This document shows, in pieces, positions 20,606-63,837 of a stretch of 64,000 nt of DNA (positions are counted from its first letter, which is position 1; each line of letters opens with the position of its first letter). The stretch comes from a virus. Location: IMG/VR virus record IMGVR_UViG_3300042446_001168. The stretch is one strand, 5' to 3'. A model generated the notes under the pieces. The model saw only the letters and a program-made list of their open reading frames with translations. It ran no database searches and had not been told where the DNA came from. The translations under genes were made by a program, and so were the position numbers.

Positions 20606-23600
20606 ATGGCAAATTCGAAGTTCGTAGCTCACTATGGAATAGACTCACAAGCCAATACCAATGTTACTGGAGACCTATATGTCTCTGGTAACGCTGCTAT
20701 TGGAGGTACTCTTTCATATAGTGGAGTGGCATTGGGTGATTTTCTTCCATCAGCTGATGGGGATAATTTAGGTAACACTACGCTGAGATGGGATATTTTT
20801 GGAGGTACTGCTAATATAGCAAGTACTTTAGTTGTAGGTGGTGCTACTACTATTAGCAACACTATACAGGTGTCGGGTGCAGCTACATTCCAAAATACAC
20901 TAACTACCACTGGTCAGGCAAACGTTGGAGCTAACCTCAATGTGGTTGGATTGGCAAACATAGCTGGGAACACATATATTGGTGGGTTTGTTAACGTATC
21001 CACAAGTGTAACTGCTGGAGGCCTTGCTAATATAGCCGGCAACGTGTCATTTACAAATACAATAGTGACAGCGACAACCAACTCCACATCCAATGTTGTG
21101 ACTGTTGGAGCTGCTAACGTATCAGTTGATTCTGGTGTGTTGTTTGTTGATTCTATCAATAACAGAGTAGGTATCAATAATACTGCTCCTGGAGTTGCTC
21201 TGCGTGTAACTGGTGATGTTGATATCAGCGCTACTGCCAATGTTCAGGGCAGCGCTACGGTAACAGGAAACCTAACTGCTAACGGTAATACTTCGCTTAC
21301 CAACTCATTGCTGGCATTAACTACCAACTCAACAGCTAGTGTATTGACAATTGGCTCTGCTAACACCAATATAGATTCGGGCACTTTCTTTGTAGATGCT
21401 ACTAATAATAGAGTGGGTATCAATAATACAGCTCCAGGTGTTGCTTTGTCTGTGACCGGCGCAGCTAATATATCCACCAGTGTTAACAGTGCCTTGCTGA
21501 CTGTAGGGGATGCATTTATAGCTAACACTACCGGGGTGTTTCATACTGGATTACTTACTGCTAATGGTAACACCTCACTTACAAATGCCATTTTTGGACT
21601 AACAACCAACTCAACAGCTAACGTACTAACAATTGGAGCAGCCAACACCAATATTGACTCTGGTGTGCTTTTTGTTGATTCGGTCAATAATAGAGTAGGT
21701 ATTAATAATACTGCTCCTGGAGTTGCTTTAAGAGTAACTGGGGATACAGATATTAGTGGTACAGCTAATATTCAAGGGAATGCAAACATTGGAGGTAATC
21801 TAGGGATAGCTGGACTGGTTACTCTTAGTGGTAATACAACTCTCAGCGGTAGCCTTCAAACAATTGCTGGTAATTCTAATTTTGATTCTGGTGTACTTTT
21901 TGTTGATTCTGTCAATAATAGAGTAGGTATCAACAATACTGCTCCAACAGTTGCTTTAGAAGTGTCTGGTGCAGCTAACGTATCGACTAGTGTTAATTCA
22001 GCACTACTAACAGTTGGTACGGCGTTCATAGCAAATACAACCGGAGTATATTCTACTGGAGTTGCCAATGCAGCATCCTTTACTACTTCTGGCATTAGTG
22101 CTAATGCAACAGCACTAGTACCTATTTCAAATACAGTTGGTCAGATACTGGGCAATACAATATCTCGTTGGGTATTGACTGCAAACAGTGGTAATTTCTC
22201 CGGCAATGTCCTATTAGGTAACACAACAACCAACACACTGATTGCACCGCAGTCGTATGCTTCAAACACTTCTGGCGCAGTGACCGGAACAGTAACCACT
22301 ATTGGTACAACCGTGGTATCTGGAACTGGTTCCGTATTCACCAATGATCTAGTGGCCGGGGATATAGTCAAGTTCTCAAGCTGCACAGCGTATTTTACTG
22401 TACAAGCAATCAGCAACTCTACTCAAATTGTTCTCACTACTAACTCCCCATCTGTATCGGGCGACACATTAGAAAAGAAAAATATTCAGACTGTAAATAA
22501 CAGTGGAGTATTTTTGTATGGGGCTAACCAAACAGTAACACCGTTCTCTAATGTAACCGCTTCGACGCTTGGAAATAGTACAGCAAGATGGATTATTAGC
22601 GCTAACACAATCCACGCTTCGGGATTAATTACTGCTGCAGGTGGGATGGATCTTACAGGATCTATTAATGCCTCATCATACCAAATTGCGTCAATCAACT
22701 CAACGTCCAATGGATTGATTGCTAACTCGACAGTGATTGCTGTTGGTAATAGCACTGTTAATACAGTAATAGATTCTACAGGTATTCGCACTAGTGGAAC
22801 TACCGGAGTTAGCCCGTATGCCAATGGGACTGATCTAGGCACACTAACTGCTCGGTGGGATGTGTACGCTGCAAACGCTGATGTTATTGGAACCCTAGCA
22901 GTTGGTAATAATGCTACGTTCTCTGGGAACGTATCTATTACCAGTGGCTCAAATCCAACGTTGTTTGTTGGTACAAGTGTAACAGTCAATACGTCTGGGG
23001 TGTATCCAGCTAGTAATACCTTAGGTAGCGCGTTAGGTACAGGAACCCAACGATTTGACATATTTGGTGATACTGCAAGTTTTGGAGGAGTATTGACTGC
23101 CAATGGTGGATTAACTATTGAATCCAATCCAATGACGGCTAATGGAACTACAGGAACATCTGGTCAGGTATTAACATCTAACGGCACTATTGGAGCTCCT
23201 TACTGGTCAACTATTAGTGCTGGTGGTGGTACTCCTGGTGGCTCCAATACCCAGGTACAGTTTAACGATTCAGGAGTGTTTAATGGGGATACTGGATTCA
23301 CCTACATTAAAACCTCAAATACACTGACTGTCGTAGGTCCAATAAACGGTGGTGATATAACTGCAACCGGAATATTAGATGGAGCATCAGCGACCATTGC
23401 AGGATCCATTGCTGGTAACTCTTTAGCAATTGCTGGAACCGCCAACGCCAACATTTTTAATGCGGCATCTACTCTAGTTGGTGGATCAAGTACCTACGGT
23501 AGCTCTGCTAGCGTTAGTACCAGCTTGTCTACAGGCACAACTCTCACAGTTGGTACCAGACTAAGTGTAAACGGTTCGTTTGGAACAGCCGGCCAGATGT

Positions 23601-24052
23601 TATATAGTGGCGGTACTGCTAATACATATTGGGCCGCTGCTCCCGCTTCTGGTGGGGTTCCTGGTGGTTCTAGTACTCATGTGCAGTATAACAATGCAGG
23701 AGCATTTGCAGGTTCAGCAAGTTTTACCTTTGCTGTTGGATCCGGTACTCTCAGTGCTACTATCATGACGACAACGTCAGATGAGAGACTAAAAACCAAT
23801 ATACAAACAATTAATGGTGGATTGGATATGGTATCTCGAATGAGAGGGGTATCGTATGAATTTAAAGATAGTGGTCATAAAGGATATGGTGTTATAGCTC
23901 AGGAGATCCAAGATATCCTACCTAACGTGGTACACACCAACGAAGACGGCTTTATGAAGGTTTCCTATAATGACATTATAGGTGTGCTAATCGAAGCCAT
24001 TAAAGACTTAAAACAAGAAATCAACGAGATGAAAAATGGCAACCAAAGCTAA
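20606..24052 (+). CDS. Tail fibre with C-terminal peptidase S74 intramolecular chaperone
   Basis: Four DSG..FVD..NNRVGINNTAP repeats; C-terminal TSDERLKTNI...RGV.Y...GVIAQE...V.Y..I..LIEAIKDL. CATAAATA at 20556-20563. Confidence 0.85.
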   Translation: MANSKFVAHYGIDSQANTNVTGDLYVSGNAAIGGTLSYSGVALGDFLPSADGDNLGNTTLRWDIFGGTANIASTLVVGGATTISNTIQVSGAATFQNTLTTTGQANVGANLNVVGLANIAGNTYIGGFVNVSTSVTAGGLANIAGNVSFTNTIVTATTNSTSNVVTVGAANVSVDSGVLFVDSINNRVGINNTAPGVALRVTGDVDISATANVQGSATVTGNLTANGNTSLTNSLLALTTNSTASVLTIGSANTNIDSGTFFVDATNNRVGINNTAPGVALSVTGAANISTSVNSALLTVGDAFIANTTGVFHTGLLTANGNTSLTNAIFGLTTNSTANVLTIGAANTNIDSGVLFVDSVNNRVGINNTAPGVALRVTGDTDISGTANIQGNANIGGNLGIAGLVTLSGNTTLSGSLQTIAGNSNFDSGVLFVDSVNNRVGINNTAPTVALEVSGAANVSTSVNSALLTVGTAFIANTTGVYSTGVANAASFTTSGISANATALVPISNTVGQILGNTISRWVLTANSGNFSGNVLLGNTTTNTLIAPQSYASNTSGAVTGTVTTIGTTVVSGTGSVFTNDLVAGDIVKFSSCTAYFTVQAISNSTQIVLTTNSPSVSGDTLEKKNIQTVNNSGVFLYGANQTVTPFSNVTASTLGNSTARWIISANTIHASGLITAAGGMDLTGSINASSYQIASINSTSNGLIANSTVIAVGNSTVNTVIDSTGIRTSGTTGVSPYANGTDLGTLTARWDVYAANADVIGTLAVGNNATFSGNVSITSGSNPTLFVGTSVTVNTSGVYPASNTLGSALGTGTQRFDIFGDTASFGGVLTANGGLTIESNPMTANGTTGTSGQVLTSNGTIGAPYWSTISAGGGTPGGSNTQVQFNDSGVFNGDTGFTYIKTSNTLTVVGPINGGDITATGILDGASATIAGSIAGNSLAIAGTANANIFNAASTLVGGSSTYGSSASVSTSLSTGTTLTVGTRLSVNGSFGTAGQMLYSGGTANTYWAAAPASGGVPGGSSTHVQYNNAGAFAGSASFTFAVGSGTLSATIMTTTSDERLKTNIQTINGGLDMVSRMRGVSYEFKDSGHKGYGVIAQEIQDILPNVVHTNEDGFMKVSYNDIIGVLIEAIKDLKQEINEMKNGNQS

Positions 24053-33200: not shown

Positions 33201-33530
33201 GCATCCAATGGGTCAGTAGGATCTCCGTACTGGGTAGACTTTAATACTGAGGTAGTATATGCATTATCTGGAACAGCATTGGATCCGTTGAATGGCACCA
33301 TCCAAACCAAAACAATAGCAGCAACAACAACATTTACAGATTCGCTGACAGCTGGACAATCAATGGTTCTGATGTTGAATGGCGGATCTTCCTACTCTGT
33401 TATATTCCCAACCATGACATGGGTCACTACTGCAGGAAATGTTGCTCCTACACTCACAGCTAACGTTGCACTTACATTCTGGAAAATCAGCACTACATTA
33501 TATGGTTCTTATGTTGGGAGTTATACATGA
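27246..33530 (+). CDS. Very long repetitive tail fibre protein (about 2094 aa)
   Basis: Start placed at ATG 27246 after GAGG. N-terminal FQVKRT...P....GELALN.PDGKLY; two FTGNG...F.L...IDGV.Q domains; DAATKAYVD / GDRVLVKNQ...NGIY domain; many 24-30 aa repeats. Confidence 0.8.
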   Translation: MANKFQVKRTTVSGRTPNTTNSSNSRYIDTGELALNVPDGKLYSSNGTGYFEIGANLQNLSVAANTVINKLVANGSLGQNTQVLASNGTSTYWADAVVGELVLTGTDLVTDVFTGNGTNTQFTLSTTPYDESAVAVIIDGVSQHKSAYSVSGNLIIFSSAPSLDAEVDVTCYTTTSNRLMGIDVTVDTFVGNGSNTNYSLSVTPDSESQILVVIDGVSQHKSAYSVSGYILTFSSAPSVDAEIDVTIFATGPVGAGSNTNVMFNDAGTFEGSNNFVFNKLNNTLSVDSLLLSDRANATSFTIGSSFVANSTGAFHTGTVNAASITTAGVVANATSIAPTSNTILLGNTIGRFVVYANTVTASGLITGVDGANISGTANLVDVNISGNLTVSGTTTYINTTTLNVGDNIVTLNADLGLISPSENAGLEVNRGTLSNVSFLWNETSDSWTSGNTDITGYANATISVNSAALTVGSAFIANASALVITTPVTANGGTGTSGQVLKSNGSTGSPYWDVPGATAGGSDTQIQFNDGGTSLNATAGFTFNKASNTVSISNTLSVSSGFSVNSSQLTVGTPLSANGVTGTSGHALISNGSTGSPYWAAVTTGTVTSVATGNGLTGGPITSTGTIDVVANNGIISNSSGVFANAGTGIVSNATGIHVNTSYVATLDANNAGYLGGTAAASYVQNTDSRTLSGNLVISGTQFTPSSNTTLLGNSTARWVLSANSGDFTGTVSGTVANMSTSVNSAALSVGTDFIANSSQLTVTTPLSANATVGTSGQVLKSNGSTGSPYWGSVTTGTVTSITTGNGLSGGPITSTGTVDVVAGTGIISNTTGVHVNTSYIATLDANNAGYLGGTVAASYVQNTDSRTLSGNLVISGTRFTPASNTILLGNSVSRWILSANTGDFSGTVSGTVADMTTSVNSALLTVGTSFVANTTGAYHTGTVNAASYTINTSYRANTTGIYHTGTVNAASYTINTIYRANTTGIYHTGTVNASSFTTSGLVANSTGIIPTSNSVGSSLGSSTQRWNLDANGATFSANIAMGNNYITGLSAPINNQDAATKAYVDAFQQGLHVHEACHVATTDTLAVITGGSVTYNNGTSGVGATLTLGTALTSLDSHSLVNGDRVLVKNQSNTAHNGIYTWATGGTVLTRATDFDTAIEIAGGDFTFVTNGTLYNSTGWVQTDEVTTIGTDPVAFVQFSGQGLYTAGSYLYLNGSQFNVNAASTSTASVVVARDTDSNFSANTITANLVGGAANLTTSVNSALLTVGTSFIANTTGVYHTGTINAASYTISTNYRANTTGLYHTGTVNAASFTTTALNANTTALTVTGYANVSTSVNSALLTVGTTFIANSTAIVGTGYANVTGSVNASSHTVGTAFIANSTAIVGTGYANVTGSVNASSHTVGTAFIANSTAIVGTGYANVTTSVNSALLTVGSAFIANSTAIVGTGYANVTTSVNSALLTVGTAFIANTTGAYHTGVVNAASYTVGAAFIANSTAIVGTGYANVTGSVNASSLTVGTAFIANSNQLTLTGIPLSGNGTTGTSGQVLTSNGTTGSPYWSTAAGTPAASYVQNTDSRTLSGNLVISGTYFNPSANTVLLGNSISRWVVSANTGDFTGTVTGTVANMSTSVNSALLTVGTAFVANTTGAYHTGIVNAASYRVGSSFIANTTLVMTPQQVVITGGAIEGGQIVIGYGNNLATSLTGQANNTFNLDIVGGNTASTPMFRSFFQHNDGTTTAAFNVANTGRMHVGSLTEQTDSTFKVNGTANVTTSVNSALLTVGTAFIANTTALVMTTPVTANGTTGTSGFVLKSNGSVGSPYWAAAAGGSVGGTDTQVQFNDGGSTTNGTAGFTFTKTTNNVTIANTLTVGSSFIANSTAIVGTGYANVTGSVNASSHTVGTAFIANSTAIVSTGFANIATSVNSALLTVGTAFIANTTGMYHGGVINAASISVGSGSFVANTTHIVMSDPLTANGATGTARNVLASNGSVGSPYWVDFNTEVVYALSGTALDPLNGTIQTKTIAATTTFTDSLTAGQSMVLMLNGGSSYSVIFPTMTWVTTAGNVAPTLTANVALTFWKISTTLYGSYVGSYT
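30066..30226 (+). repeat. 72-bp tandem repeat (about 2.2 copies, 24 aa unit)
   Basis: actggcacagtcaatgc recurs at 30066, 30138 and 30210 with near-identical intervening sequence. Confidence 0.9.
31290..31830 (+). repeat. 90-bp tandem repeat array (30 aa unit FIANSTAIVGTGYANVT...)
   Basis: tcattgcgaatagcacagct at 31291, 31381 and 31471 (identical units); a second unit type at 31501 and 31591; a further related unit to about 31830. Confidence 0.92.
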
Positions 33531-35134
33531 AATTGGCTAGAAGAATTATTGCAAAGAGTACTCCACTGGTTGGAGCGTGGAATATTGATTATGTTTATTA
33601 CAACCCCCCTTCCAGTCTGTGTTGGGATAGTAGGACAGCGGCGAATACAGGTACTACTGTTCAAAGCTTCACCTCTAGAGATTCATTTCCATCTGGGTTA
33701 TATGTCAAGTCTGACAATACTAAACTGTTTATGGTTGGCTCGACAAACGACAGAGTGTATGAATTTGCTATGTCAAACAACTATACCATTGCTTTCACAA
33801 ATTTTAAAAGTGTGTCCACAGAGGAAACACTTCCCACTGGTTTGACGTTTAGTCCTGATGGAATATTTATGTACGTAATTGGGTCAACAGGGGATGATGT
33901 TAATCAATATACATTATCAACCGCGTGGAGTGTTAGTACAGCTGTATTCACTAGAGTATCAACTGCATCGGTGACGAACCCGGAAGCTACTATGCAGGGG
34001 GTGTTCTTCAAACCAGACGGTACTGCGATGTATACCGTTGGTAGTACACTTAACACAGTGCGACAGTATAGCTTAGCTACTGCTTGGAATGTGAGCACAT
34101 TGGCGTTTGTTCGATCATTTTCTGTGGGAACAGTTGGTCCAGTTGACATATCTTTTGATCCCACCGGTACCAAAATGAGAGTATTCACGGATTTTGGTAC
34201 CGGTGGACAGTTCCTCTCATACACCCTATCAACCGCATGGAATATTAGCACTGCAACACTTGATTTTGCTAGACCATCAACACCGTCATTAGGAGACGCC
34301 TCAGTTCAAGCCGGATTCTTTGAGTCAACTGGTAGACACGTGTTTGTTACGGGTAGCACAGCGCAGGGTTTTTCCCCATATGTGCTGGGTGGTTTTGACA
34401 TATCAGCCAAGGAAACAGCACCAACAAGCATTGCGTTCAGCGACGATGGTACTAAGATGTATGTGTATGGTTCAATTAGTGATGCAGTACATCAATACAC
34501 TCTTAGCACAGCTTGGGATGTAAGTTCTGCTGTGTTTTTGCAATCCTTTGCAATTGCGGATGGTTCACCCAATGGGCTTGCTTTTAGCTCGGATGGTTTA
34601 AAATTATATTCTATTGGTACTAGTTCCGTGAGAGAGCATACTCTTTCTACTGCATGGAATATTAGCACTGCAACGTTTGTGCGAGTTCAGAGTTTTGCGT
34701 TTACTACAGGAGAGGCTCTGTCCACCGGTATATACTTTGACAGCACAGGTACCAGAGTATATACTACTGGATCGGGATCAGACAATGTATATCAATATAG
34801 CTTAGCCACTGCATGGAATATTTCCACTGTTTCTTATGTAAGAGCCAAAAGCGTAAGTGCACAAGATACTTCACCACAGGATGTTTTTTTTAAGCCTGAT
34901 GGTAAAACAATGTATGTTCTTGGACAAGTTGGCGGTGTTGGTGTATCCCCAGGACTACTCCAGTATACTCTTTCTACTGCATGGGATATTAGCACTGCAA
35001 CGTTTACCAGATTCAAGCCCACAGAGACCGAAGAAAATACCGCAACAGGATTTACTTTCAAACCAGATGGTACCAAGATGTATATTGTGGGTACCAAGAA
35101 TAGGGTATTCCAATATTCTTTAGGAGTTGAATGA
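33527..35134 (+). CDS. Beta-propeller repeat protein, putative receptor-binding tip
   Basis: About 10 repeats of F..DG.KMY..G...V.QY.L.TAW.ISTA; start overlaps the stop of the long fibre gene. Confidence 0.75.
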   Translation: MKLARRIIAKSTPLVGAWNIDYVYYNPPSSLCWDSRTAANTGTTVQSFTSRDSFPSGLYVKSDNTKLFMVGSTNDRVYEFAMSNNYTIAFTNFKSVSTEETLPTGLTFSPDGIFMYVIGSTGDDVNQYTLSTAWSVSTAVFTRVSTASVTNPEATMQGVFFKPDGTAMYTVGSTLNTVRQYSLATAWNVSTLAFVRSFSVGTVGPVDISFDPTGTKMRVFTDFGTGGQFLSYTLSTAWNISTATLDFARPSTPSLGDASVQAGFFESTGRHVFVTGSTAQGFSPYVLGGFDISAKETAPTSIAFSDDGTKMYVYGSISDAVHQYTLSTAWDVSSAVFLQSFAIADGSPNGLAFSSDGLKLYSIGTSSVREHTLSTAWNISTATFVRVQSFAFTTGEALSTGIYFDSTGTRVYTTGSGSDNVYQYSLATAWNISTVSYVRAKSVSAQDTSPQDVFFKPDGKTMYVLGQVGGVGVSPGLLQYTLSTAWDISTATFTRFKPTETEENTATGFTFKPDGTKMYIVGTKNRVFQYSLGVE

Positions 35135-35604
35135 TGTATGTGAAAATTGCCAATAATACCGTTGTAAAATATCCATACACACTCAGAGAGATGAGTGAGG
35201 ATAACACGAACGTGTGCTTTCCTGAACAGATACCAGATGAGGATCTTGCGTTATTTGGAGTGTATCGAGTGTATATTCCACCTATCCCTGCATACGATCA
35301 CATTACCCAGAGAGTTGAATGGGCAACAGTACCAACTTTAATTGATGGAATCTGGACGCTGGGTGGCACTGTGGTTGATAAGACAGATGTACAGCTGGAT
35401 TCAGATAATCGTAGTCAAGCAAAGCAAATTCGAAACGATCGTAAAGTCATACTGAGAGAATGTGATTGGACACAATCAAACGACACCCCACTTCCCGCAG
35501 CTCAAGTAGCTGCATGGGCAGCATACCGACAAGAGTTGCGAGATATTAGTACTCAGTCCGGATTTCCGTGGATTGTTGTGTGGCCAGTTGCCCCAACGGA
35601 GTAA
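35131..35604 (+). CDS. Tail fibre assembly chaperone
   Basis: R..R...L.ECDWTQ..D.P.....W.AYRQ.LRDI..Q.GFP....WP..P. Confidence 0.85.
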   Translation: MMYVKIANNTVVKYPYTLREMSEDNTNVCFPEQIPDEDLALFGVYRVYIPPIPAYDHITQRVEWATVPTLIDGIWTLGGTVVDKTDVQLDSDNRSQAKQIRNDRKVILRECDWTQSNDTPLPAAQVAAWAAYRQELRDISTQSGFPWIVVWPVAPTE

Positions 35605-35645
35605 CTAGTTGATAGTATTAAGTATTTGATACCTGGAGATGTATT

Positions 35646-36041
35646 TTGAGGAATGTTTTTGTTAATGGTACCTTTGACGTAATACATCCTGGGCATATTG
35701 AGCTACTAAACTTTGCTAAGGATCAAGGAGATCATCTCACAGTAGCTATTGATAGTACTGATAGAATAAGAAGATTGAAAGGTCCTTATCGCCCAATAAA
35801 CACAGAATATGAGCGGGTACTCATACTCCAGAATATTAGGGCAGTAGATCATGTGGTAGTATTCCACACAGATGAAGATCTGATCAAGTTAGTATCCAAA
35901 TGTGATGTAATGGTAAAGGGCTCTGACTACAGGGGCAAGCCTATAGTTGGTGAGAGTGAATGTAAGGAAATTCTTTTTTATGAGATATACAATGAATATT
36001 CAACAACAAAAAAAATTCAACATATTATTAGTAGGGGATAG
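35646..36041 (+). CDS. D-glycero-D-manno-heptose-1-phosphate adenylyltransferase-like (HldE/RfaE domain II)
   Basis: NGTFDVIHPGH (HxGH), KGPYRPIN...R, VKGSDY, YSTT; TTG start after GGAG. Confidence 0.85.
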   Translation: MRNVFVNGTFDVIHPGHIELLNFAKDQGDHLTVAIDSTDRIRRLKGPYRPINTEYERVLILQNIRAVDHVVVFHTDEDLIKLVSKCDVMVKGSDYRGKPIVGESECKEILFYEIYNEYSTTKKIQHIISRG

Positions 36042-36741
36042 CTGTACTGATGTGTATCAGTACGGTACTGTTGATAGAATCAGTCCAGAGGCACCGGTTC
36101 CCATCTTTAGTTTTTTGTATCAGGATGATAAACCTGGTATGGCATTGAATGTCCAGTCTAATCTAGAGCAACTTGGATGCAATGTCCATATCATGACTCA
36201 AACTCCTTCAAAAAAAACCAGGTTAATAGATAGAAAAACTAGTCAGCAGATGTTGAGGATTGATACTGATAGTATTAGTAAAACTCCGTTTATGTTTGAA
36301 GAACCTATAGTGGGGTATGATGCTGTAGTAGTATCTGACTATAAAAAAGGATGTGTCAGCTATAAAACTATTAACAGTATTCAAAGGTACTTTGATGGTC
36401 CCATATATGTTGATACCAAGAAAACCAACCTTAGTAATATTGATGGGTGTTTTGTTAAGATAAACAGTCAAGAGCGTAATCGAGTGGTGTCGTTGTGTAC
36501 TGAGCTGATTGTTACAATGGGCAAGGACGGAGCTCAGTATAATGGAGATACATATCCAGCAAATCACGTCGAGGTAAATGATGTGTGTGGAGCTGGAGAT
36601 ACTTTCATGGCTGCACTTGTTTACTTTCATTTGCACACAGGAAATATTAAAACAGCAATACATTATGCTAACAAAGCTGGATCTATAACGGTACAGCATC
36701 TAGGAACATATGCTCCTAGTATTGAAGAGATATTATTATGA
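35992..36741 (+). CDS. Heptose-7-phosphate kinase-like (HldE/RfaE domain I, PfkB family)
   Basis: LVGD...D.Y.YG.V.RISPEAPVP, SDYKKG, DVCGAGDTF. Start reassigned to ATG 35992. Confidence 0.88.
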   Translation: MNIQQQKKFNILLVGDSCTDVYQYGTVDRISPEAPVPIFSFLYQDDKPGMALNVQSNLEQLGCNVHIMTQTPSKKTRLIDRKTSQQMLRIDTDSISKTPFMFEEPIVGYDAVVVSDYKKGCVSYKTINSIQRYFDGPIYVDTKKTNLSNIDGCFVKINSQERNRVVSLCTELIVTMGKDGAQYNGDTYPANHVEVNDVCGAGDTFMAALVYFHLHTGNIKTAIHYANKAGSITVQHLGTYAPSIEEILL

Positions 36742-37499
36742 AAATATTAGTAACAGGATATAAAGGATTTATTGCTCAGAATCTAATTCCTCAGCTATCT
36801 GACCATGAAGTATCGGTATTTGAGTGGGGAGAGGATGAGCCAGTTATTGAAGGATTAGATTGGGTAATTCATTTGGGAGCCGAGTCTTCTACTACAGAAA
36901 CCAATGTAGAGAAGGTGATGACGAAGAACTATGACTTTAGTATGTGGTTACTGTCAAAATGTATTGATCACGGCGTAAACATGCAATACGCTAGCTCTGC
37001 ATCGGTGTACGGTAAAGGAATTGAATTTAGTGAGGAAAGTCCAAAGGATCCAAGGACACCATATGCTTGGTCAAAGTATCTTTTTGATAGAGAGGCTTTT
37101 CAATTAAATCATGCTGGGGATATTGTTTTACAGGGGATGAGATATTTTAATGTTTATGGTCCGCATGAAGATCGTAAAGGAAGTCAGGCTAGTGTATATC
37201 ATCAATTTCAGCAACAGTTTAGTGAAACTGGTAGGGTGAAGGTATTTGAAGGATCTGAGAATTTCTACAGGGATTTTATTTACGTTAATGATGCTATCTC
37301 TATGCAGATGGCTTTGATGGAGACAGGACAAAGTGGAGTCTGGAATATTGGGTCGGGTAAAATAGCCAGCATAATGGATGTTGCTAAATTGTTCACAAAT
37401 AATATTGATGTGATTCCATTTCCAAAGAATTTAGAGCATTCATATCAAGAGCACACGTGTGCTGATATTACAAAATTAAAACAAACGTTGGGTATATAA
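36738..37499 (+). CDS. hldD: ADP-L-glycero-D-manno-heptose 6-epimerase-like (extended SDR)
   Basis: VTGYKGFI, HLGAESSTTE, YASSASVYG, YAWSK, RYFNVYGPHE.RKGSQAS, RDFIYV, YQ..TCAD. Confidence 0.85.
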   Translation: MKILVTGYKGFIAQNLIPQLSDHEVSVFEWGEDEPVIEGLDWVIHLGAESSTTETNVEKVMTKNYDFSMWLLSKCIDHGVNMQYASSASVYGKGIEFSEESPKDPRTPYAWSKYLFDREAFQLNHAGDIVLQGMRYFNVYGPHEDRKGSQASVYHQFQQQFSETGRVKVFEGSENFYRDFIYVNDAISMQMALMETGQSGVWNIGSGKIASIMDVAKLFTNNIDVIPFPKNLEHSYQEHTCADITKLKQTLGI

Positions 37500-38422
37500 T
37501 GAACACTACATTTATGATTTCGGGTGGAGCAGGAAAAATTATATGTGCTATTCCTGCGCTCGAGAAGTTTGCAAGACTAAATCCGGAGAATGACTTCAGG
37601 GTTGTTATTCCAGCATGGGATAGTCTTTACTGGGGTAACCCAGTTCTTCAACCAAGAACATTTAACGTGGATCACAAGGGTCTTTTTGACCATGTTGTTA
37701 AAAACAACAAGTTAGTAGTCCCGGAGCCATATCACCTACACTCTTACTATAACCAGAAGAAGACTCTTATAGAGGCTTTTGATGAATTAATTAATACTAC
37801 CCACGATCACTCTGATTTAACTAAACCAAACTTATATGTAAGCACCAAAGAGGATCTTCAAGGGGCCAGTGTTATTAATAAGCTGCATGAGCAGCACGGT
37901 AAGAAGAAGGTAATTGTATTTCAGCCGTATGGTAGAGGAATGTCAGCAATTGATGGTATTCCTTTTGACCAATCTACTAGAAGCATTATACCTTCTATGG
38001 CACTGAATATGTCTACTGAACTTAGCAAGCATGCTATAGTGGTATATTTTGGAGACAAAGAATTCATGCATCCAACTGACAAGTCAATGGTTCATATTGA
38101 GGATGGTGGAACTGGTCTGCGGATGTATCTGAGTTTAATTAAGCACTGCGATTACTTTGTTGGTTGCGATTCAATTGGTCAACACATAGCTAGGTCTTTT
38201 AACAAACCTGGCACCGTTATAATGGGGGCTACCTCAGAGTATCAAGTATCATATCCTGATCATTTTGATATTGTCAGGAACGGAGTATCACCGGTACATA
38301 ATCCATATGGTATTACTGGATGGGAAGGTGGACTAATTGATATACTCAATCAGGATACTATGACATTTACGGACGAGCAGATTCATAATATAGTATGTTC
38401 TATAGTAGCAGAAATGCTGTGA
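37499..38422 (+). CDS. Glycosyltransferase, GT9/heptosyltransferase-like
   Basis: GGAGK.ICAIPAL N-terminus and DYFVGCDSIGQHIARSFNKPGTVIMGAT (GT9-like D.F.G.DS...H.A motif). Confidence 0.7.
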   Translation: MNTTFMISGGAGKIICAIPALEKFARLNPENDFRVVIPAWDSLYWGNPVLQPRTFNVDHKGLFDHVVKNNKLVVPEPYHLHSYYNQKKTLIEAFDELINTTHDHSDLTKPNLYVSTKEDLQGASVINKLHEQHGKKKVIVFQPYGRGMSAIDGIPFDQSTRSIIPSMALNMSTELSKHAIVVYFGDKEFMHPTDKSMVHIEDGGTGLRMYLSLIKHCDYFVGCDSIGQHIARSFNKPGTVIMGATSEYQVSYPDHFDIVRNGVSPVHNPYGITGWEGGLIDILNQDTMTFTDEQIHNIVCSIVAEML

Positions 38423-38450
38423 TATTAAAAGGTTCCCGGATACCTTATCA

Positions 38451-38458
38451 GATAAATA
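38451..38458 (+). promoter_or_regulatory. Late promoter (GATAAATA) of S74 paralog 1
   Basis: Intergenic, followed by AAGGAG and ATG 38480. Confidence 0.75.
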
Positions 38459-38479
38459 GAAGAAAATAAGGAGCATCTA

Positions 38480-39244
38480 ATGGCAATAACCTGTAGTGTA
38501 GATACAATAACCTTCAACGATGGTACTACACAGACCCAAGCGTTTTGTACGTCTTGTATGATTAGCTTTTGTACTAATCCTGTAAATATTAATTTTGGCA
38601 GTGCATCGGTTCCTGCTTTTACCGCTACCTCAGCCATAGCAGCGGGGGCATCAACAATATGCAGTCATAATCTTACATCTACAACATCCTTCTACAGGCA
38701 AGGTACAGGGGCTTCTGCCTGTATCAATTTTGACGTTTCTAGTAGTACCAAGAGAACTTACTTTGCTTCGTGTGTAGTCCAACGGCAGAATATTACACCG
38801 AGCACTACTAATACACTGAATTTAGGAAGTACAGGCCTTCGTTGGTCTACCTTGTGGATAGCCGGTGGATCAGTGACTAATGTGTCGGATGAAAACCACA
38901 AGACTGATATAATGCCCATATCTGATCAAGAAAGATCAGTTGCTCTGGAACTACAAAAGAATTTAAAGCGGTTCAAATTTAAGGATGCGGTTACTGAAAA
39001 GGGGTTTGAGGAAGCCAGATATCATCTTGGGTGTATTGCTCAAGAGGTTGCACAAATTTTCCGGGATAAGGGATTGGATCCTTTCAAGTACGGTATGATT
39101 GGTTATGATATTTGGTATGAGGGGATCAATCCTGATACTCAAGATTTTGAAAGGGTTGATACTCCTGCTGATGGTTATGTTAAGAAGGATCTGTATTCAA
39201 TTAGGTACAGTGAACTACTTTCCTTTATTGTAGCGGCAATGTGA
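38480..39244 (+). CDS. Short Ser/Thr/Cys-rich protein with peptidase S74 chaperone, paralog 1
   Basis: LGSTGLRW...SDENHK...KRFKFKDAV.EKG..ARYHLG.IAQ...YSIRY.ELL.F. Confidence 0.8.
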   Translation: MAITCSVDTITFNDGTTQTQAFCTSCMISFCTNPVNINFGSASVPAFTATSAIAAGASTICSHNLTSTTSFYRQGTGASACINFDVSSSTKRTYFASCVVQRQNITPSTTNTLNLGSTGLRWSTLWIAGGSVTNVSDENHKTDIMPISDQERSVALELQKNLKRFKFKDAVTEKGFEEARYHLGCIAQEVAQIFRDKGLDPFKYGMIGYDIWYEGINPDTQDFERVDTPADGYVKKDLYSIRYSELLSFIVAAM

Positions 39245-39297
39245 TATGATTGTTAGCTATCATCTTAAACTCTATACTGTACGGTATAATTGGATAG

Positions 39298-39305
39298 CAT
39301 AAATA
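39298..39305 (+). promoter_or_regulatory. Late promoter (CATAAATA) of S74 paralog 2
   Basis: Intergenic, followed by AAGGAG and ATG 39328. Confidence 0.75.
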
Positions 39306-39327
39306 GAAGAAAGGTAAGGAGTATCTT

Positions 39328-40107
39328 ATGGCAATATCAAGTAACGCTACTGCAATAATTTTTAACAATAGTACGGTTCAAACTACGGCGTTCAGTAAGA
39401 CATCCGGACTCACCTTTACAACTGCTGCTATAACTTCAACAGCTGCTACCCTGGCGTTATGTACTCCGGGAGCAATATGTGCACCATCTATAGTTGCAGC
39501 TACTCAGATCTTTTGTACTGGGGCCACACAGATACAATATCTTGTTACCGATATGATATTGACAGTTAACAATGCGACCAACCACGCACATGGTACAACC
39601 AGTACTGTACAATACAAAGATATAATTCCAATTACCACTAACGTATATCACTTGGGATCTACAGCTGTGCGATGGGGGGCGGCGTGGGTGACAAGTGGAT
39701 CGTTAGTGGCGTCCGACGAGAATCTAAAGACGGATATAACATCAATATCCAATCAAGAGAGAGATGTTGCCTTAGAGGTAAAGAAGAACCTTAAGCGGTT
39801 CAAATTTAAGGAGGCAGTTGCCAAGAAGGGATTTGATACGGCCAGATACCATTTTGGGTGTATAGCTCAAGAAGTTGAACAAATCTTCCGGGATGGTGGA
39901 TTAGATCCTTTTAAATACGGTATAATAGGATTTGATACGTGGTACGAGGGAGTAAAAATTAGTTTGAATGGTCAGAATCAGGAGTTTGAAGATATTGACA
40001 TATCGTACACCCCAAAAGACGGATATGTTAAAAAAGAGCTACACTCAGTTAGATACGATGAGTTAATTACCTTTATTTTATCGGCGTTGGCTGGTACAAG
40101 TAGGTAA
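39328..40107 (+). CDS. Short Ser/Thr-rich protein with peptidase S74 chaperone, paralog 2
   Basis: LGSTAVRW...SDENLK...ARYHFGCIAQ...SVRYDEL. Confidence 0.8.
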   Translation: MAISSNATAIIFNNSTVQTTAFSKTSGLTFTTAAITSTAATLALCTPGAICAPSIVAATQIFCTGATQIQYLVTDMILTVNNATNHAHGTTSTVQYKDIIPITTNVYHLGSTAVRWGAAWVTSGSLVASDENLKTDITSISNQERDVALEVKKNLKRFKFKEAVAKKGFDTARYHFGCIAQEVEQIFRDGGLDPFKYGIIGFDTWYEGVKISLNGQNQEFEDIDISYTPKDGYVKKELHSVRYDELITFILSALAGTSR

Positions 40108-40115
40108 GATAAATA
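40108..40115 (+). promoter_or_regulatory. Late promoter (GATAAATA) of S74 paralog 3
   Basis: Intergenic, followed by AAGGA and ATG 40138. Confidence 0.75.
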
Positions 40116-40137
40116 TAAAAAGAGTAAGGAATACCTT

Positions 40138-40950
40138 ATGGCAATAACCAGTAACGCTACTGCAATAGCTTTTAACGATGCATCTGTTCAAACTTCAAAT
40201 TTCAGTTTGACTTGTGGGCATGCGTTCACGTGTCAGCTTTGCTTTGGTTCCGGATTCACTACGTGCATAGGATCACCTACTCCAGCAACCAACCAGTCAA
40301 CTCTATCGTTTTGTACAACTGGTCAACTGTGTGCACCTACTTTCTGCTCAAGATTTCGAAATTTTGAATCTGCAGCTGGGGAAGCGTACGGAAGTACTTC
40401 AATGTATACTGGCTCCGCCATTGGTTGTCTAGTGACGCGTGTTGGGAGTGTTAATACAGCAATATTCACTACCACTGCACATAACGCAGGCAGCAATCTA
40501 TTTCCAACCAGCACAGCAGCTGCGATAAGCTTAGGGACCACTAGTCTTCGATGGGCAACCATTTGGGTAACTGGTGGATCGTTGATAGTGTCTGATCAGA
40601 ACTATAAGACCGATATAACTCCAATAACTGATCAAGAGAAAGCTGTTGCTCTAGAGATAAAAAGAAATATAAAAAGATTTAAATTTAAAGACGCAGTAGC
40701 TAAAAAGGGCTTTGATGCTGCTAGATATCATTTTGGATGCATTGCTCAAGAAGTTGAACAAATCTTCCGAGATAGTGGGTTAGACCCCTTTCAGTATGGT
40801 GTTGTGGGATATGATGTCTGGTATGAGAGGTTCAATCCAACTACTCAGAGGACGGAGGTAGTTCAAGAGCCTACCGATGGGTACGTCGAGACGACGTTGT
40901 ACTCAGTTAGATATGATGAGCTGCTTTCGTTCATTGCTTCAGCCCTATAA
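40138..40950 (+). CDS. Short Ser/Thr/Cys-rich protein with peptidase S74 chaperone, paralog 3
   Basis: LGTTSLRW...SDQNYK...ARYHFGCIAQ...YSVRYDELL. Confidence 0.8.
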   Translation: MAITSNATAIAFNDASVQTSNFSLTCGHAFTCQLCFGSGFTTCIGSPTPATNQSTLSFCTTGQLCAPTFCSRFRNFESAAGEAYGSTSMYTGSAIGCLVTRVGSVNTAIFTTTAHNAGSNLFPTSTAAAISLGTTSLRWATIWVTGGSLIVSDQNYKTDITPITDQEKAVALEIKRNIKRFKFKDAVAKKGFDAARYHFGCIAQEVEQIFRDSGLDPFQYGVVGYDVWYERFNPTTQRTEVVQEPTDGYVETTLYSVRYDELLSFIASAL

Positions 40951-40959
40951 GGAAATTAG

Positions 40960-41700
40960 ATGGCAGTCCCTACAAGTAGAAGTGCATTTAAAGAATACTG
41001 TTTAAGAAGTCTTGGCAAACCTGTGATTGAGATCAACGTTGACGATGATCAGGTTGAAGATCGTATTGACGAGGCTTTAAAATATTTCTGGGATTATCAT
41101 TTTGATGGTTCTGAGCGTGTGTATTATAAGCATCAGATTACTAATGATAATGTAACTGACAAATATGTCACTCTGCCAGAAAATATTATTGGAGCCGTAA
41201 GGATTTTTAATATTGGCGATCCAATGGTATCAAACAATCTATTTGATATTAGATATCAAATTGCGCTCAATGATCTATACACTCTGACGTCTGTGTCAAT
41301 GATACCATACTATATGGCATTCCAGCATATTCAGCTGATGGAACAGCTGTTAGTTGGGATGCAGCCAATTCGTTACAACAGACACATGAACCGCCTCCAT
41401 GTTGACATGGACTGGGGTAAAGTTACTGTTGGTAACTTCTTAATTGTAGACGCGTATCAAATTGTGGATCCTGATACGTATACTGATGCATGGGGGGACA
41501 GATGGTTAGCCCAATATGCCACAGCAAAGATTAAACGTCAGTGGGGATCCAACTTGACTAAATTCAGTGGTATGCAGCTACCTGGTGGAGTTCAATTCAA
41601 TGGCGATAAGATATATGAAGATGCAGTCAAGGAGATTGAAAATCTTGAGAATGAGATGATTATTAGCTACTCGCTTCCTGTAACCGATATGATTGGGTAG
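40960..41700 (+). CDS. gp13: Neck protein gp13
   Basis: K.YCLR.LG.PVIEINVDDDQ.EDRIDEAL...YHFDG; QWG.NL.KF.G.QLPGGV. Confidence 0.93.
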   Translation: MAVPTSRSAFKEYCLRSLGKPVIEINVDDDQVEDRIDEALKYFWDYHFDGSERVYYKHQITNDNVTDKYVTLPENIIGAVRIFNIGDPMVSNNLFDIRYQIALNDLYTLTSVSMIPYYMAFQHIQLMEQLLVGMQPIRYNRHMNRLHVDMDWGKVTVGNFLIVDAYQIVDPDTYTDAWGDRWLAQYATAKIKRQWGSNLTKFSGMQLPGGVQFNGDKIYEDAVKEIENLENEMIISYSLPVTDMIG

Positions 41701-61520: not shown

Positions 61521-62038
61521 TGATATATGAATTAGTGAAGCCGGACCATGTGATGTTGAGAACCAAACTGGATAGATTTGACTTCAACAATCCACCAATG
61601 AATCCTCATGAGCTAGCTAACAACCTCATCGAAACAATGATCCACAACAACGGTATTGGGTTATCTGCCAATCAATGTGGTCTCCCGTACAAAGTATTTG
61701 TGTTGTGGTCAAACCCAACAAAAGTAATGTTTAATCCTACTGTGGCCGATATCTCTACGGAGGAGATTATGTTGGAGGAAGGATGTTTGACGTATCCAAA
61801 TCTTTTCATAAAGATTAAGAGACCGAAGTTAGTCCGTATTAGATACATGGATTCATTTGGAGAAGCTCAGACCGATAAGTTTACTGGGATGACTGCTAGA
61901 TGCGTACTTCATGAGATGGATCATCTGAATGGAGTTAATTTCACACATAAAGCTAGCAAGTTTCATTTTGAGCAAGCCATGAGACAGAGAAATAAACGAG
62001 AAAAATCATATAAGGTGCCTAGCCATGAGCAAAATTAA
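61520..62038 (+). CDS. def: Peptide deformylase
   Basis: GIGLSANQ, EGCL, HEMDHL. Confidence 0.95.
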   Translation: MIYELVKPDHVMLRTKLDRFDFNNPPMNPHELANNLIETMIHNNGIGLSANQCGLPYKVFVLWSNPTKVMFNPTVADISTEEIMLEEGCLTYPNLFIKIKRPKLVRIRYMDSFGEAQTDKFTGMTARCVLHEMDHLNGVNFTHKASKFHFEQAMRQRNKREKSYKVPSHEQN

Positions 62039-62876
62039 AGTAGCAGAATTATTCTATTCTCTTCAGGGTGAAGGGAAATATGTCGGAGTTCCTAGTGTGT
62101 TTTTACGAACATTTGGGTGTAACTTCACTTGTAGTGGATTTGGAATGCCTAAAGGAGACGTATCTAATGAACGAGATGGGATTGCAGTTAATATTGGCCA
62201 GTTTAAATCTTACAACGATCTACCACTTGTTCATACCGGTTGCGATTCTTATGCTAGCTGGGATCCTCGGTTCAAACATCTTTCACCGGTTCTTACTACG
62301 GATTCGATTGTGGAATCAATTAAGGAATTACTCCCGAATAAACACTGGAAAGAAGAACACCTAATTATTACTGGTGGTGAGCCATTACTTGGATGGCAGA
62401 GATCATTTGCCGATCTACTATCACACGAGGGGATGGCTGGCCTCAAGTCTATTACTTTTGAGACCAACGGTACTCAGAAGCTCACAGACGACTTCAAGAA
62501 GTTCTTGTTTCAACATGGATCAAAGAACAAAGGTAATGTTGAGATTGTGTTCTCCGTGAGTGCTAAATTGAGTGCATCAGGAGAAAAATGGGAAGAGGCA
62601 ATTCTACCAGCAGTTGTAGCTGATTATGAACAGTACGGTGAAGTATATCTGAAGTTTGTGGTTGATAAGGATAGTGACATTGAAGAAGTTGATAGAGCGG
62701 TGTATGTGTACAGAGATAATGGGATTCGTGGTAACATATATCTGATGCCTGTTGGAGGAACTGATCAGATATACTTTAGTAACTTCAAAGCTGTTGCAGA
62801 AATGGCCATGAAGCGTGGGTGGAGATATAGTCCAAGATTGCAGGTAGATATTTGGCGTAACGCATGGGGTACTTGA
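62025..62876 (+). CDS. queE: 7-carboxy-7-deazaguanine synthase QueE (radical SAM)
   Basis: ELFYSLQGEG...G.PSVFLR.FGCN..C...CDS, ITGGEPL, ETNGT, SPRL.V.IW. Confidence 0.88.
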   Translation: MSKIKVAELFYSLQGEGKYVGVPSVFLRTFGCNFTCSGFGMPKGDVSNERDGIAVNIGQFKSYNDLPLVHTGCDSYASWDPRFKHLSPVLTTDSIVESIKELLPNKHWKEEHLIITGGEPLLGWQRSFADLLSHEGMAGLKSITFETNGTQKLTDDFKKFLFQHGSKNKGNVEIVFSVSAKLSASGEKWEEAILPAVVADYEQYGEVYLKFVVDKDSDIEEVDRAVYVYRDNGIRGNIYLMPVGGTDQIYFSNFKAVAEMAMKRGWRYSPRLQVDIWRNAWGT

Positions 62877-62879
62877 TAA

Positions 62880-63353
62880 ATGGACATTGACCAAAATGAT
62901 TTCAATAAAGCAGTTGATAGCCTTTGTGTACAAATCAGAGAGAGTCAGGTTAAATTTGACTTCATTGTTGGAATCAGTCGTGGGGGCCTTATTCCTAGTG
63001 TTCTTTTGTCTCACCGTCTTCAGATTCCTCTTAGGACTGTAGAGTGGTCAACAAGGGATTCAGGTCTCAGGAATTGTTCCCCTGATATTGCCTATCAAGC
63101 AAGATATAAATCACCAACATATGAACGTAAGAACATATTAGTAGTAGATGACATTGTTGATAGTGGTATTACAATCAAAGAGCTACTTGATAGTTGGCAA
63201 ATGAAGGATAGTGATAACGTCAAGTTAGCATGTATAGTATTTAACAAGGAACAGCGATTGATAACACCTGATTACTATTATCAAGTGATAGATCGAAGTG
63301 AAAATAAACAATGGGTAAATTTTTGGTGGGAGCAAAATGAATCAACCAGTTAA
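62880..63353 (+). CDS. Purine phosphoribosyltransferase (Gpt-like)
   Basis: GISRGGLIP...SH.L, ILVVDDIVDSG.T (PRPP-binding motif), WV.F.WE. Confidence 0.88.
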   Translation: MDIDQNDFNKAVDSLCVQIRESQVKFDFIVGISRGGLIPSVLLSHRLQIPLRTVEWSTRDSGLRNCSPDIAYQARYKSPTYERKNILVVDDIVDSGITIKELLDSWQMKDSDNVKLACIVFNKEQRLITPDYYYQVIDRSENKQWVNFWWEQNESTS

Positions 63354-63837
63354 TTATAAATTCGTATCAACAAAAGAGTATGTGGATGCCTTCCCATGTG
63401 CTTACAGACAATTCCGTGCAGATTCTCACTGCAACCTAATTCATGGGTACAGCTTCTCCATGAAGTTCTACTTTGGAACCAACGACCTTGACGTTCGTAA
63501 TTGGGCTGCTGACTATGGTGGATTGAAAGAGCTAAAGGAAGTACTACAGGAACAGTTTGACCATACCCTTCTTGTAGCAGAGGATGATCCTGAGCTAGAG
63601 ACCTATAAACTTCTACAAGAGAAGAAGATGGCTAAGCTAACCATCCTACCACGACTGGGATGCGAAGGCCTGGCCGATTCGCTTTACAAGTATGTTAATG
63701 GAGTTTACATTCCTGACTATTGGGGTCCTGGTGAGTCGCGTCGTCTTTGGTGCTATCGTGTAGAGGTTCGCGAGACTCAAAGTAATATGGCTTTCCGAGA
63801 AGGACATCGTGAGTGGAACGAGGATCTATTCGAATGA
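63337..63837 (+). CDS. queD: 6-carboxy-5,6,7,8-tetrahydropterin synthase QueD-like
   Basis: C..IHGY, DYG.LK......FDH, E.LA, VEVRET. Confidence 0.85.
   Translation: MNQPVNYKFVSTKEYVDAFPCAYRQFRADSHCNLIHGYSFSMKFYFGTNDLDVRNWAADYGGLKELKEVLQEQFDHTLLVAEDDPELETYKLLQEKKMAKLTILPRLGCEGLADSLYKYVNGVYIPDYWGPGESRRLWCYRVEVRETQSNMAFREGHREWNEDLFE

Follow-up and report, generated by a model that had tools for sequence, protein, structure and literature searches.

This analysis concerns a stretch of 64,000 nucleotides of viral DNA, the IMG/VR record IMGVR_UViG_3300042446_001168 (here termed the window), and in particular a cassette of four genes at positions 35646 to 38422 that encodes three predicted enzymes of ADP-heptose synthesis and a glycosyltransferase (GT) in the midst of the late structural genes of a T4-like myovirus. 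In our favoured reading, to which we assign a probability of roughly 0.45, the acceptors of the GT are fibre proteins of the virion. The phage nucleotidyltransferase (NT), kinase, and epimerase would supply ADP-heptose, the steps catalyzed by GmhA and GmhB being contributed by the host or from elsewhere in the genome, and the soluble GT would use this donor in the cytoplasm during particle assembly and place heptose on proteins of the fibre module of its own phage, the candidate acceptors being a propeller protein, the long fibres, and a set of mini-fibres. Both the gene set and the place where it lies had been recorded in the literature and in GenBank annotations. New are the recognition of the GT as a distinct GT9-fold clade, which is phage-only and has an altered catalytic position, and the measurement of its recurrent neighbours, among which the three mini-fibre paralogs following the cassette in the window are not conserved partners.

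The evidence for an acceptor on the virion is circumstantial. Such an acceptor is favoured because the GT clade is found in phages only, because the position and strand of the GT among structural genes are fixed, because the GT recurs beside fibre chaperones and cysteine-rich fibre proteins of several unrelated families, because homologues are located in compact structural modules of unrelated phages of Vibrio and Aeromonas with no sugar genes nearby, and because proteins composed of a TPR-like and a GT9 domain, which accompany the GT in many lineages, share the architecture of FlmG, a flagellin O-glycosyltransferase whose TPR domain binds the protein substrate (PMC7591256).

The GT gene (37499 to 38422) is located on the plus strand, as is every gene between 33.5 and 41.7 kb. 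Its product matches the family PF01075 with 17.8 bits (E value 0.0022; cut-off 22 bits) and over residues 205-248 only, the matches to the NCBIfam models for RfaQ and heptosyltransferase III are far under their cut-offs, and a profile of 47 family sequences gave only chance matches against the sequences of the PDB. The AF2 model of the GT (pLDDT 93) clearly indicates a GT9 fold over the whole chain. In the VIA comparison, Z scores of 23.6 for 3tov (277 residues aligned, root mean square deviation 3.3), 21.5 for WaaF (1psw), 20.2 for TibC, 19.7 for WaaC (2h1f), and 19.4 for PnsB1 (7wff_a) were obtained, whereas the remaining GT-B folds reached at most 11; Foldseek was concordant. The original prediction of a GT9-like transferase is therefore borne out by the structure search (Z 19-24 versus at most 11), even though the PF01075 score lies below gathering. 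It had also proposed structure searches against WaaC/WaaF and Aah/TibC; this comparison yielded the GT9 fold and no discrimination, because WaaF (Z 21.5) and TibC (Z 20.2) are tied, so that the fold cannot separate a lipopolysaccharide (LPS) from a protein acceptor. The likeness to WaaC and WaaF (CAZy family GT9; 2H1F, 1PSW) and to 3TOV extends over the whole GT-B chain (Z 19.7-23.6, 252-277 residues aligned) and includes the linkage of the genes to ADP-heptose synthesis and a common C-terminal donor motif. TibC and Aah (BAHT family; 4RAP, 4RB4), which have a GT9-type fold as well (266 residues aligned), are cytoplasmic, ADP-heptose-using enzymes with protein acceptors and thus constitute a precedent for protein heptosylation, but only residues 97-391 of TibC align, its N-terminal part being without a phage counterpart, and an autotransporter-like substrate is not present. 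The BAHTs presumably possess an iron-binding cysteine cluster; such a cluster is unlikely in the GT, because the alignment of 47 family sequences contains no invariant or nearly invariant cysteine residue.

Residues 1-40 of the GT align without gaps with WaaC and WaaF, including G12 and the motif (L/I)PAL, and D224, H229, and G243 match the donor motif of these enzymes (the region of D261 in WaaC). G12, D224, H229, and G243 are invariant, D224 and H229 across nine distant phage members and WaaC/WaaF, within a motif D-S/T-G-x-x-H that reads GCDSxGQH in the window. Position 13, which follows G12, is occupied by aspartate in WaaC and WaaF, by lysine in the window GT, and by arginine in all eight other phage members; Arg13 is nearly invariant among the 47 family sequences and is also present in the 27%-identical homologues of the Vibrio and Aeromonas phages. 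For the N-terminal part, we relied on the ungapped register together with a MAFFT alignment; hhalign of the GT family, with probabilities of 2% for WaaC and 38% for WaaF, aligned the C-terminal half only. We take Asp13 to be the catalytic residue of WaaC and WaaF, and presumably the catalytic aspartate is common to TibC as well. Compared to WaaC and WaaF, the acceptor domain of the clade is furthermore shorter by about 40 residues, and the clade has an invariant PEPY motif of its own, whose clade-specific glutamate (E76) could act as the base instead. Judged by these features, the clade appears to fit neither the plain WaaC/WaaF type nor the TibC type of enzyme, and both the acceptor and its activation probably differ from those of WaaC, WaaF, and TibC, because the acceptor half is smaller and lysine or arginine replaces the catalytic aspartate.

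The absence of the canonical catalytic base throughout the clade would also fit a GT with some other acceptor, such as a small molecule, a lipid, or a peptide-like product, or a non-catalytic assembly factor that binds nucleotide sugars, like the chloroplast NDH subunit PnsB1. The non-enzymatic GT9-fold protein 7wff_a matches the GT model as well as WaaC does, and the 2-oxoglutarate (2OG) oxygenases, cupins, halogenase-like genes, and carbamoyltransferases in the gene islands of relatives are also known from natural-product pathways. We nevertheless consider this explanation improbable, since the donor-binding residues are invariant between distant phage members and WaaC/WaaF, the dN/dS ratio of the GT is 0.04, the gene frequently co-occurs with genes for donor synthesis, and the invariant glutamate of the PEPY motif could replace the base.

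The distribution of the clade is based on 380 homologues in metagenomes and 568 IMG/VR loci. The Atlas clusters nearest to the GT are 100% viral, and a search of 185,579 species genomes gave only 11 matches, all of them on contigs of metagenome-assembled genomes and several accompanied by phage fibre genes. Cultured members include PSSM2_307, SSSM7_120, and gp154 of S-CAM3 (32-36% identity) as well as the 27-28% identical homologues of Vibrio phage K479 (L089:7863-8711) and Aeromonas phage HJ05 (L090:8001-8921; here and below, L numbers designate individual loci). The latter two, which carry Arg13, belong to phages of 79 kb and are flanked by very large virion or tail genes, with no sugar-nucleotide genes nearby.

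The three genes preceding the GT encode an NT of the HldE domain II type, that is, a predicted heptose-1-phosphate adenylyltransferase (35646 to 36041, TTG start, 131 aa; TIGR02199, 2.1e-32; phrog_7878, 3e-38), a heptose-7-phosphate kinase of the HldE domain I type (35992 to 36741, 249 aa; TIGR02198, 3.1e-41; PF00294), and a short ADP-heptose 6-epimerase of the HldD type (36738 to 37499, 253 aa; TIGR02197, 1.4e-64) with 35% identity to RfaD of Escherichia coli. In each case the best family match is a heptose-specific NCBIfam model, and the motifs HPGH of the NT, GAGD of the kinase, and SSA, YxxxK, and RKGS of the epimerase are intact. The scores lie below the equivalog cut-offs (NT, 111.9 versus 181.5 bits; kinase, 141.5 versus 345 bits; epimerase, 218.2 versus 274.6 bits), and each protein is shorter than the bacterial enzyme. 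Comparison of the window phage with two close strains gave dN/dS ratios of 0.08 for the NT, 0.10 for the kinase, 0.03 for the epimerase, and 0.04 for the GT, and all four cassette enzymes are under strong purifying selection. Because of the heptose-specific best matches, the intact motifs, and this selection, it is well supported that the cassette enzymes are predicted to be functional and point to ADP-heptose, in line with the original prediction that the phage encodes heptose-donor enzymes of its own. The tight coupling of the four genes was likewise recognized correctly: the NT and kinase genes overlap by 50 nt, as they also do in P-SSM2 and metagenomic relatives, ATGA joins the kinase and epimerase genes, and TAATG joins the epimerase and GT genes. 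The kinase most likely starts at ATG 35992, where three independent gene callers placed it, also on identical contigs, and an alternative start at 35947 was set aside.

The expected lack of GmhA and GmhB in the window is confirmed by tblastn with the cyanophage copies, which detected no gmhA-, HAD-, or GmhB-like genes within it; the cyanophage HAD-like 'phosphoheptose isomerase', cupin, carbamoyltransferase, and Cys-rich paralogs gave no tblastn match to the window below an E value of 0.1. A GmhB-type HAD phosphatase is often present in the islands of relatives. The annotation 'phosphoheptose isomerase' is found for proteins of 106-114 aa in P-SSM2 (L001:13030-13374), S-SSM7 (L002:17705-18040), and S-CAM3 (L003:12921-13241), which match no Pfam family and contain an N-terminal DxDGT motif typical of HAD phosphatases; to judge by this motif, they could be phosphatases of the GmhB kind and not GmhA.

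For the analysis of the gene neighbourhood, 80 IMG/VR loci, four metagenome loci (L004-L007), and the window were grouped into 52 lineages at 90% GT identity. In every case the GT is co-directional with the structural genes and located towards the 3' end of the fibre region before gp13-15, and in 21 of the 52 lineages gp13-15 were found downstream on the same strand. Genes for NT, kinase, and epimerase occur within 10 kb of the GT in about 20-22 lineages (approximately 40%), and one complete genome contains the GT and no HldE-type NT; the link of the GT to phage heptose genes is thus frequent and optional. A PF16778-type chaperone is encoded at most 3 kb upstream of the GT in eight other lineages, adjoining it in seven of these, and near the GT in S-SSM7 and L100. 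The conserved linkage on which the original prediction was to be judged hence exists for structural genes and for hld genes, but not for the mini-fibre paralogs with S74 chaperone domains, of which no homologue was found within 10 kb of the GT in any of the 80 related loci.

Three layouts recur around the GT. In layout A, very Cys-rich fibre-like proteins are followed by a fibre chaperone, the GT, a carbamoyltransferase, a GmhB-type HAD phosphatase, the NT, and the kinase, an order that was found in 9-12 lineages, in the cyanophages P-SSM2, S-SSM7, and S-CAM3, where the Cys-rich proteins form arrays of Gly_rich_2 paralogs, and in L100. The Cys-rich proteins of layout A, located directly upstream of the chaperone-GT-carbamoyltransferase block, contain 7-17% cysteine and belong to no Pfam family (examples are L067:81-785, L069:4938-7670, L073:7549-9441, L076:2302-6675, L084:6471-9920, and L085:5385-8066); when ten Cys-rich GT neighbours of relatives were compared with Pfam, no families were found except for a weak CxxCxxCC match. 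For virion proteins synthesized in the cytoplasm, a cysteine content of 7-17% is unusual. Given that Cys-rich neighbours recur and that a cationic residue occupies the position of the catalytic base, a linkage of the heptose through cysteine sulfur may be envisaged, but we regard this variant as very unlikely.

Layout B comprises larger islands with GT25, GT2, GT32, sulfotransferases, methyltransferases, and 2OG oxygenases, and the islands of relatives further hold GT8, cupins, halogenase-like genes, and carbamoyltransferases. A protein of about 450 aa in layout B is modelled with ten TPR-like helices in residues 1-180 and a GT9 fold in residues 190-449 (Z 15-17) with a canonical G-D motif. 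Proteins of this TPR-like/GT9 type (330-460 aa, no Pfam match; for example L004:8005-9351 and L013:7843-9222) were found in 24 of the 52 lineages; the window does not contain one. FlmG of Caulobacter combines a substrate-binding TPR domain with a GT-B domain in the same manner (PMC7591256), but transfers pseudaminic acid. Layout C consists of arrays of paralogs of about 350 aa around the GT. In multi-GT islands, the first gene after the GT often encodes a protein of 125-180 aa with 5-7% cysteine (L043:10959-11402 and 13 other lineages), which has a weak match to the zinc- or iron-chelating CxxCxxCC type. Genes for heme oxygenase and ferredoxin-dependent bilin reductase were found between the GT and gp13 in L070 (7086-7625), L065 (11416-12006), and also L060, and these contigs are cyanophage-like because of these genes.

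Regions of this kind have been interpreted in another way. T4-GC 302-308 of P-SSM2 were termed 'LPS genes' (PMC1079782), and the host recognition cluster of pelagimyophages, a hypervariable region with fibres, glycosyltransferases, and rfaE, was read as serving the modification of the host O-chain (PMC7029224), an interpretation also followed in later cyanophage papers. The 'LPS genes' of cyanomyophages and pelagimyophages resemble the present system in the GT family, the location, and the NT, kinase, and epimerase genes nearby, but the published records label the GT 'hypothetical protein'; the window version, from a freshwater phage, is minimal in comparison, with four genes and without a carbamoyltransferase, HAD protein, or other GTs. 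According to this view, the cassette would raise the ADP-heptose pool and the GT would heptosylate a lipid-linked glycan of the host at the cytoplasmic face, the acceptor being the LPS core, the O-chain, or a capsule precursor, which would block the adsorption of competitors or of the phage's own progeny. WaaF and WaaC of LPS-core synthesis are among the closest solved folds, the GT25, GT8, GT2, and GT32 enzymes, sulfotransferases, and carbamoyltransferases of relatives are typical of surface-glycan loci, and the islands are hypervariable like the glycan loci of hosts. Remodelling of the host surface is, however, made less likely by a GT clade that is confined to phages and old, with no recent capture from hosts, and in which the acceptor half is reduced and the catalytic aspartate of the LPS heptosyltransferases replaced. 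The cyanophages carry the GT together with a fuller heptose pathway although cyanobacterial LPS is free of heptose and Kdo according to the statement in PMC4515613, so that the cyanophage members would be without a canonical LPS-core acceptor. Moreover, the location within the late structural block and the lack of own promoters mean poor timing for superinfection exclusion, the TPR-GT9 partners point to protein substrates, and in the Vibrio and Aeromonas phages the homologues are part of compact structural modules with no other sugar genes nearby. We therefore judge host-surface remodelling to be unlikely, though it retains appreciable weight.

The timing can be judged from promoter-like sequences. 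A late-promoter-like box of the type NATAAATA is located about 30 nt upstream of each of the three mini-fibre paralogs, in addition to a strong ribosome-binding site: GATAAATA at 38451 to 38458 before paralog A, CATAAATA at 39298 to 39305 before paralog B, and again GATAAATA at 40108 to 40115 before paralog C, all on the plus strand. Because each paralog has its own box, the paralogs would begin new late transcription units. The motif itself is validated by the related lineages, in which ATAAATA precedes gp13 in 19 of 21 cases (90%) and the sugar genes in only 0-10%. In the window, no late-promoter box was found before gp13 and none before the sugar genes, in agreement with the earlier statement that no promoter is evident there. 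The exact sequence TATAAATA has three occurrences versus 5.5 expected, and the sigma-70-like and terminator-like sites between 33 and 42 kb are at chance level and uninformative on early or middle promoters. Late co-transcription of the sugar genes with the fibre genes by read-through from the fibre operon is plausible, and such read-through fits because boxes before sugar genes are rare and boxes before gp13 common.

Several points weigh against heptosylation of the phage's own fibres. A glycosylated virion protein has been shown for no T4-like aquatic phage, and for cyanophages and pelagiphages no tested case of virion glycosylation turned up in our literature searches. Since fibre genes crowd the variable region, finding the GT beside them is partly what its position alone would predict, no single family of candidate acceptors is conserved beside the GT, and the three paralogs of the window are lineage-specific and transcribed from their own promoters. 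With the catalytic aspartate missing from the sequence, even the chemistry of the GT appears uncertain, and because of the complete genome without an HldE-type NT, the sequences do not prove a heptose donor for the whole clade. In addition, the expression timing is one that we infer, and the accompanying GT25, GT2, GT8, and GT32 enzymes are of types used for the synthesis of cell-surface glycans. 

Decoration of the own particle by phage GTs encoded beside structural genes has been demonstrated experimentally in mycobacteriophages (Freeman et al. 2023, as cited in PMC12801897 and PMC12619734). As described there, the mycobacteriophage systems involve other GT families, sugars, and hosts and target the C-termini of capsid and tail-tube proteins, whereas the glycosylation of the present phage is what we infer.

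The three paralogs (A, 38480 to 39244, 254 aa; B, 39328 to 40107, 259 aa; C, 40138 to 40950, 270 aa) are composed of a common N-terminal segment of 22 residues, a variable middle part rich in cysteine, serine, and threonine, and a conserved C-terminal S74 chaperone domain, which matches PF13884 with 44.4, 49.1, and 48.5 bits (cut-off 22; E values of 2e-11, 7e-13, and 1e-12). The stretch (V/A)SD(E/Q)NxKTDI is conserved at the start of this domain, with a serine residue at the expected site of a putative autocleavage. The designation as Ser/Thr-rich S74 proteins stands with regard to the domain and to a content of 28-32% serine plus threonine in the mature parts, but they are not richer in these residues than the long fibres of the window phage (26-29%); the cysteine content is 2-5% versus about 0.1% in the long fibres. 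Only four IMG/VR relatives were found, all matching the chaperone half, and a comparison with 5.8 billion proteins yielded no more than two relatives of the mature part, each from a close strain whose gene order is the same. Among strains, the mature parts share 63-64% identity (dN/dS 0.33), compared to 93% (0.04) for the GT, and by these values the paralogs look like fast-evolving, exposed mini-fibres. Their slot is presumably the site of wac (fibritin) in the gene order of T4, and by this analogy they may be neck or collar fibres. The idea that they are special substrates of the GT is not supported, given their restriction to one narrow lineage, their own late boxes, and a serine and threonine content no higher than that of other fibres; they are possible acceptors, none of them specifically implicated. 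The GT-adjacent arrays of cyanophages were considered as homologues of the paralogs and rejected, as they consist of Gly_rich_2 proteins without BLAST similarity. An 1148-aa fibre encoded at 20606-24052 of the window likewise ends in a Peptidase_S74 chaperone domain, so that the phage has at least four S74-type fibres.

The window encodes gp13, gp14, and gp15, sheath, portal, and a gp23-type capsid protein with 66-72% identity to those of DLP6, phiM12, and Melnitz. The stretch was found across many lake-water metagenomes, which identifies a freshwater phage, and a megablast search of the region against 50,697 phage records gave no match. Contigs from four lake samples show zero differences to the window, a comparison that bears on presence and gene order only, and since these contigs bridge the gene junctions, the gene order is real and not an assembly artefact. 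The flanks of the cassette are as described in the original prediction, the fibre chaperone, the three S74 proteins, and gp13 being confirmed by PF16778, PF13884, and phrog_211 matches. Upstream are located the gene of a beta-propeller protein of the fibre module (33527 to 35134, 535 aa, SGL/lactonase-like; PF08450 and PF10282) and, joined to it by an ATGA overlap, that of the tail-fibre assembly chaperone (35131 to 35604; PF16778, 1.2e-18); in relatives, RCC1-type propellers are found at the equivalent position. Downstream, the gene for the gp13-type neck protein (40960 to 41700; phrog_211, 6e-42; PF26809 on the identical contigs) forms the border of the variable region. Compared to strain L109, dS is about 0.16 for propeller and chaperone and 0.8-1.3 for NT, kinase, epimerase, GT, and paralog A, which makes a recombination breakpoint between the chaperone and NT genes (35605-35645) likely; by these values, the four sugar genes appear to have travelled together with the paralogs as a single unit, relative to the fibre genes located upstream.

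Phage DNA is a further conceivable acceptor, the GT then heptosylating a modified base as a protection against restriction. Experiments have demonstrated that certain GT-B enzymes of phages attach one or two heptose units to 5-hydroxymethylcytosine (5hmC), in conjunction with a cytidylyltransferase and a kinase-like enzyme (bioRxiv 10.1101/2023.12.21.572611). Those enzymes, however, resemble the beta-GT of T4, BshA, and MshA, whereas the window GT is far closer to GT9 structures; no gene for a cytosine methyltransferase, TET protein, or hydroxymethylase was found near the cassette, the position of the GT among fibre and neck genes is conserved, and the DNA-modification genes visible in the window are of the 7-deazaguanine type (radical SAM, PTPS). 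Heptosylation of DNA is accordingly very improbable. The latter genes are located at the 3' end of the window (62025-63837), encode QueE-like radical-SAM, phosphoribosyltransferase, and PTPS/QueD-like proteins, and are consistent with a pathway of 7-deazaguanine DNA modification that continues beyond the window.

The presence of glycosyltransferase and 'LPS' genes in the fibre region of cyanophages and pelagiphages has been on record since 2005, and these genes were always assigned to modification of the host surface without tests. The conserved GT clade with its distinctive active site is present in cultured phages, namely P-SSM2, S-SSM7, S-CAM3, K479, and HJ05, and is genetically testable in K479 and HJ05, while the four-gene version of the window, as the simplest form of the system, should be the easiest to reconstitute. 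A clean experimental test is newly offered by the cultured cyanophages: as their hosts are reported to have LPS without heptose, heptose on purified virions would be a clean readout. In its widest form, heptosylation of own fibres would mean that lake and ocean phages of the T4 type, cultured cyanophages among them, heptosylate their fibre-tip proteins by a phage-only offshoot of GT9, with the heptose in many relatives being further carbamoylated, sulfated, or methylated, and that the marine 'LPS genes' specify a virion glycocalyx which tunes adsorption or shields the fibres, a generalization that we put forward tentatively and at less than even odds. If the virion rather than the host is decorated, the reading of host range, adsorption, and phage-phage competition would change for very abundant viruses of natural waters.

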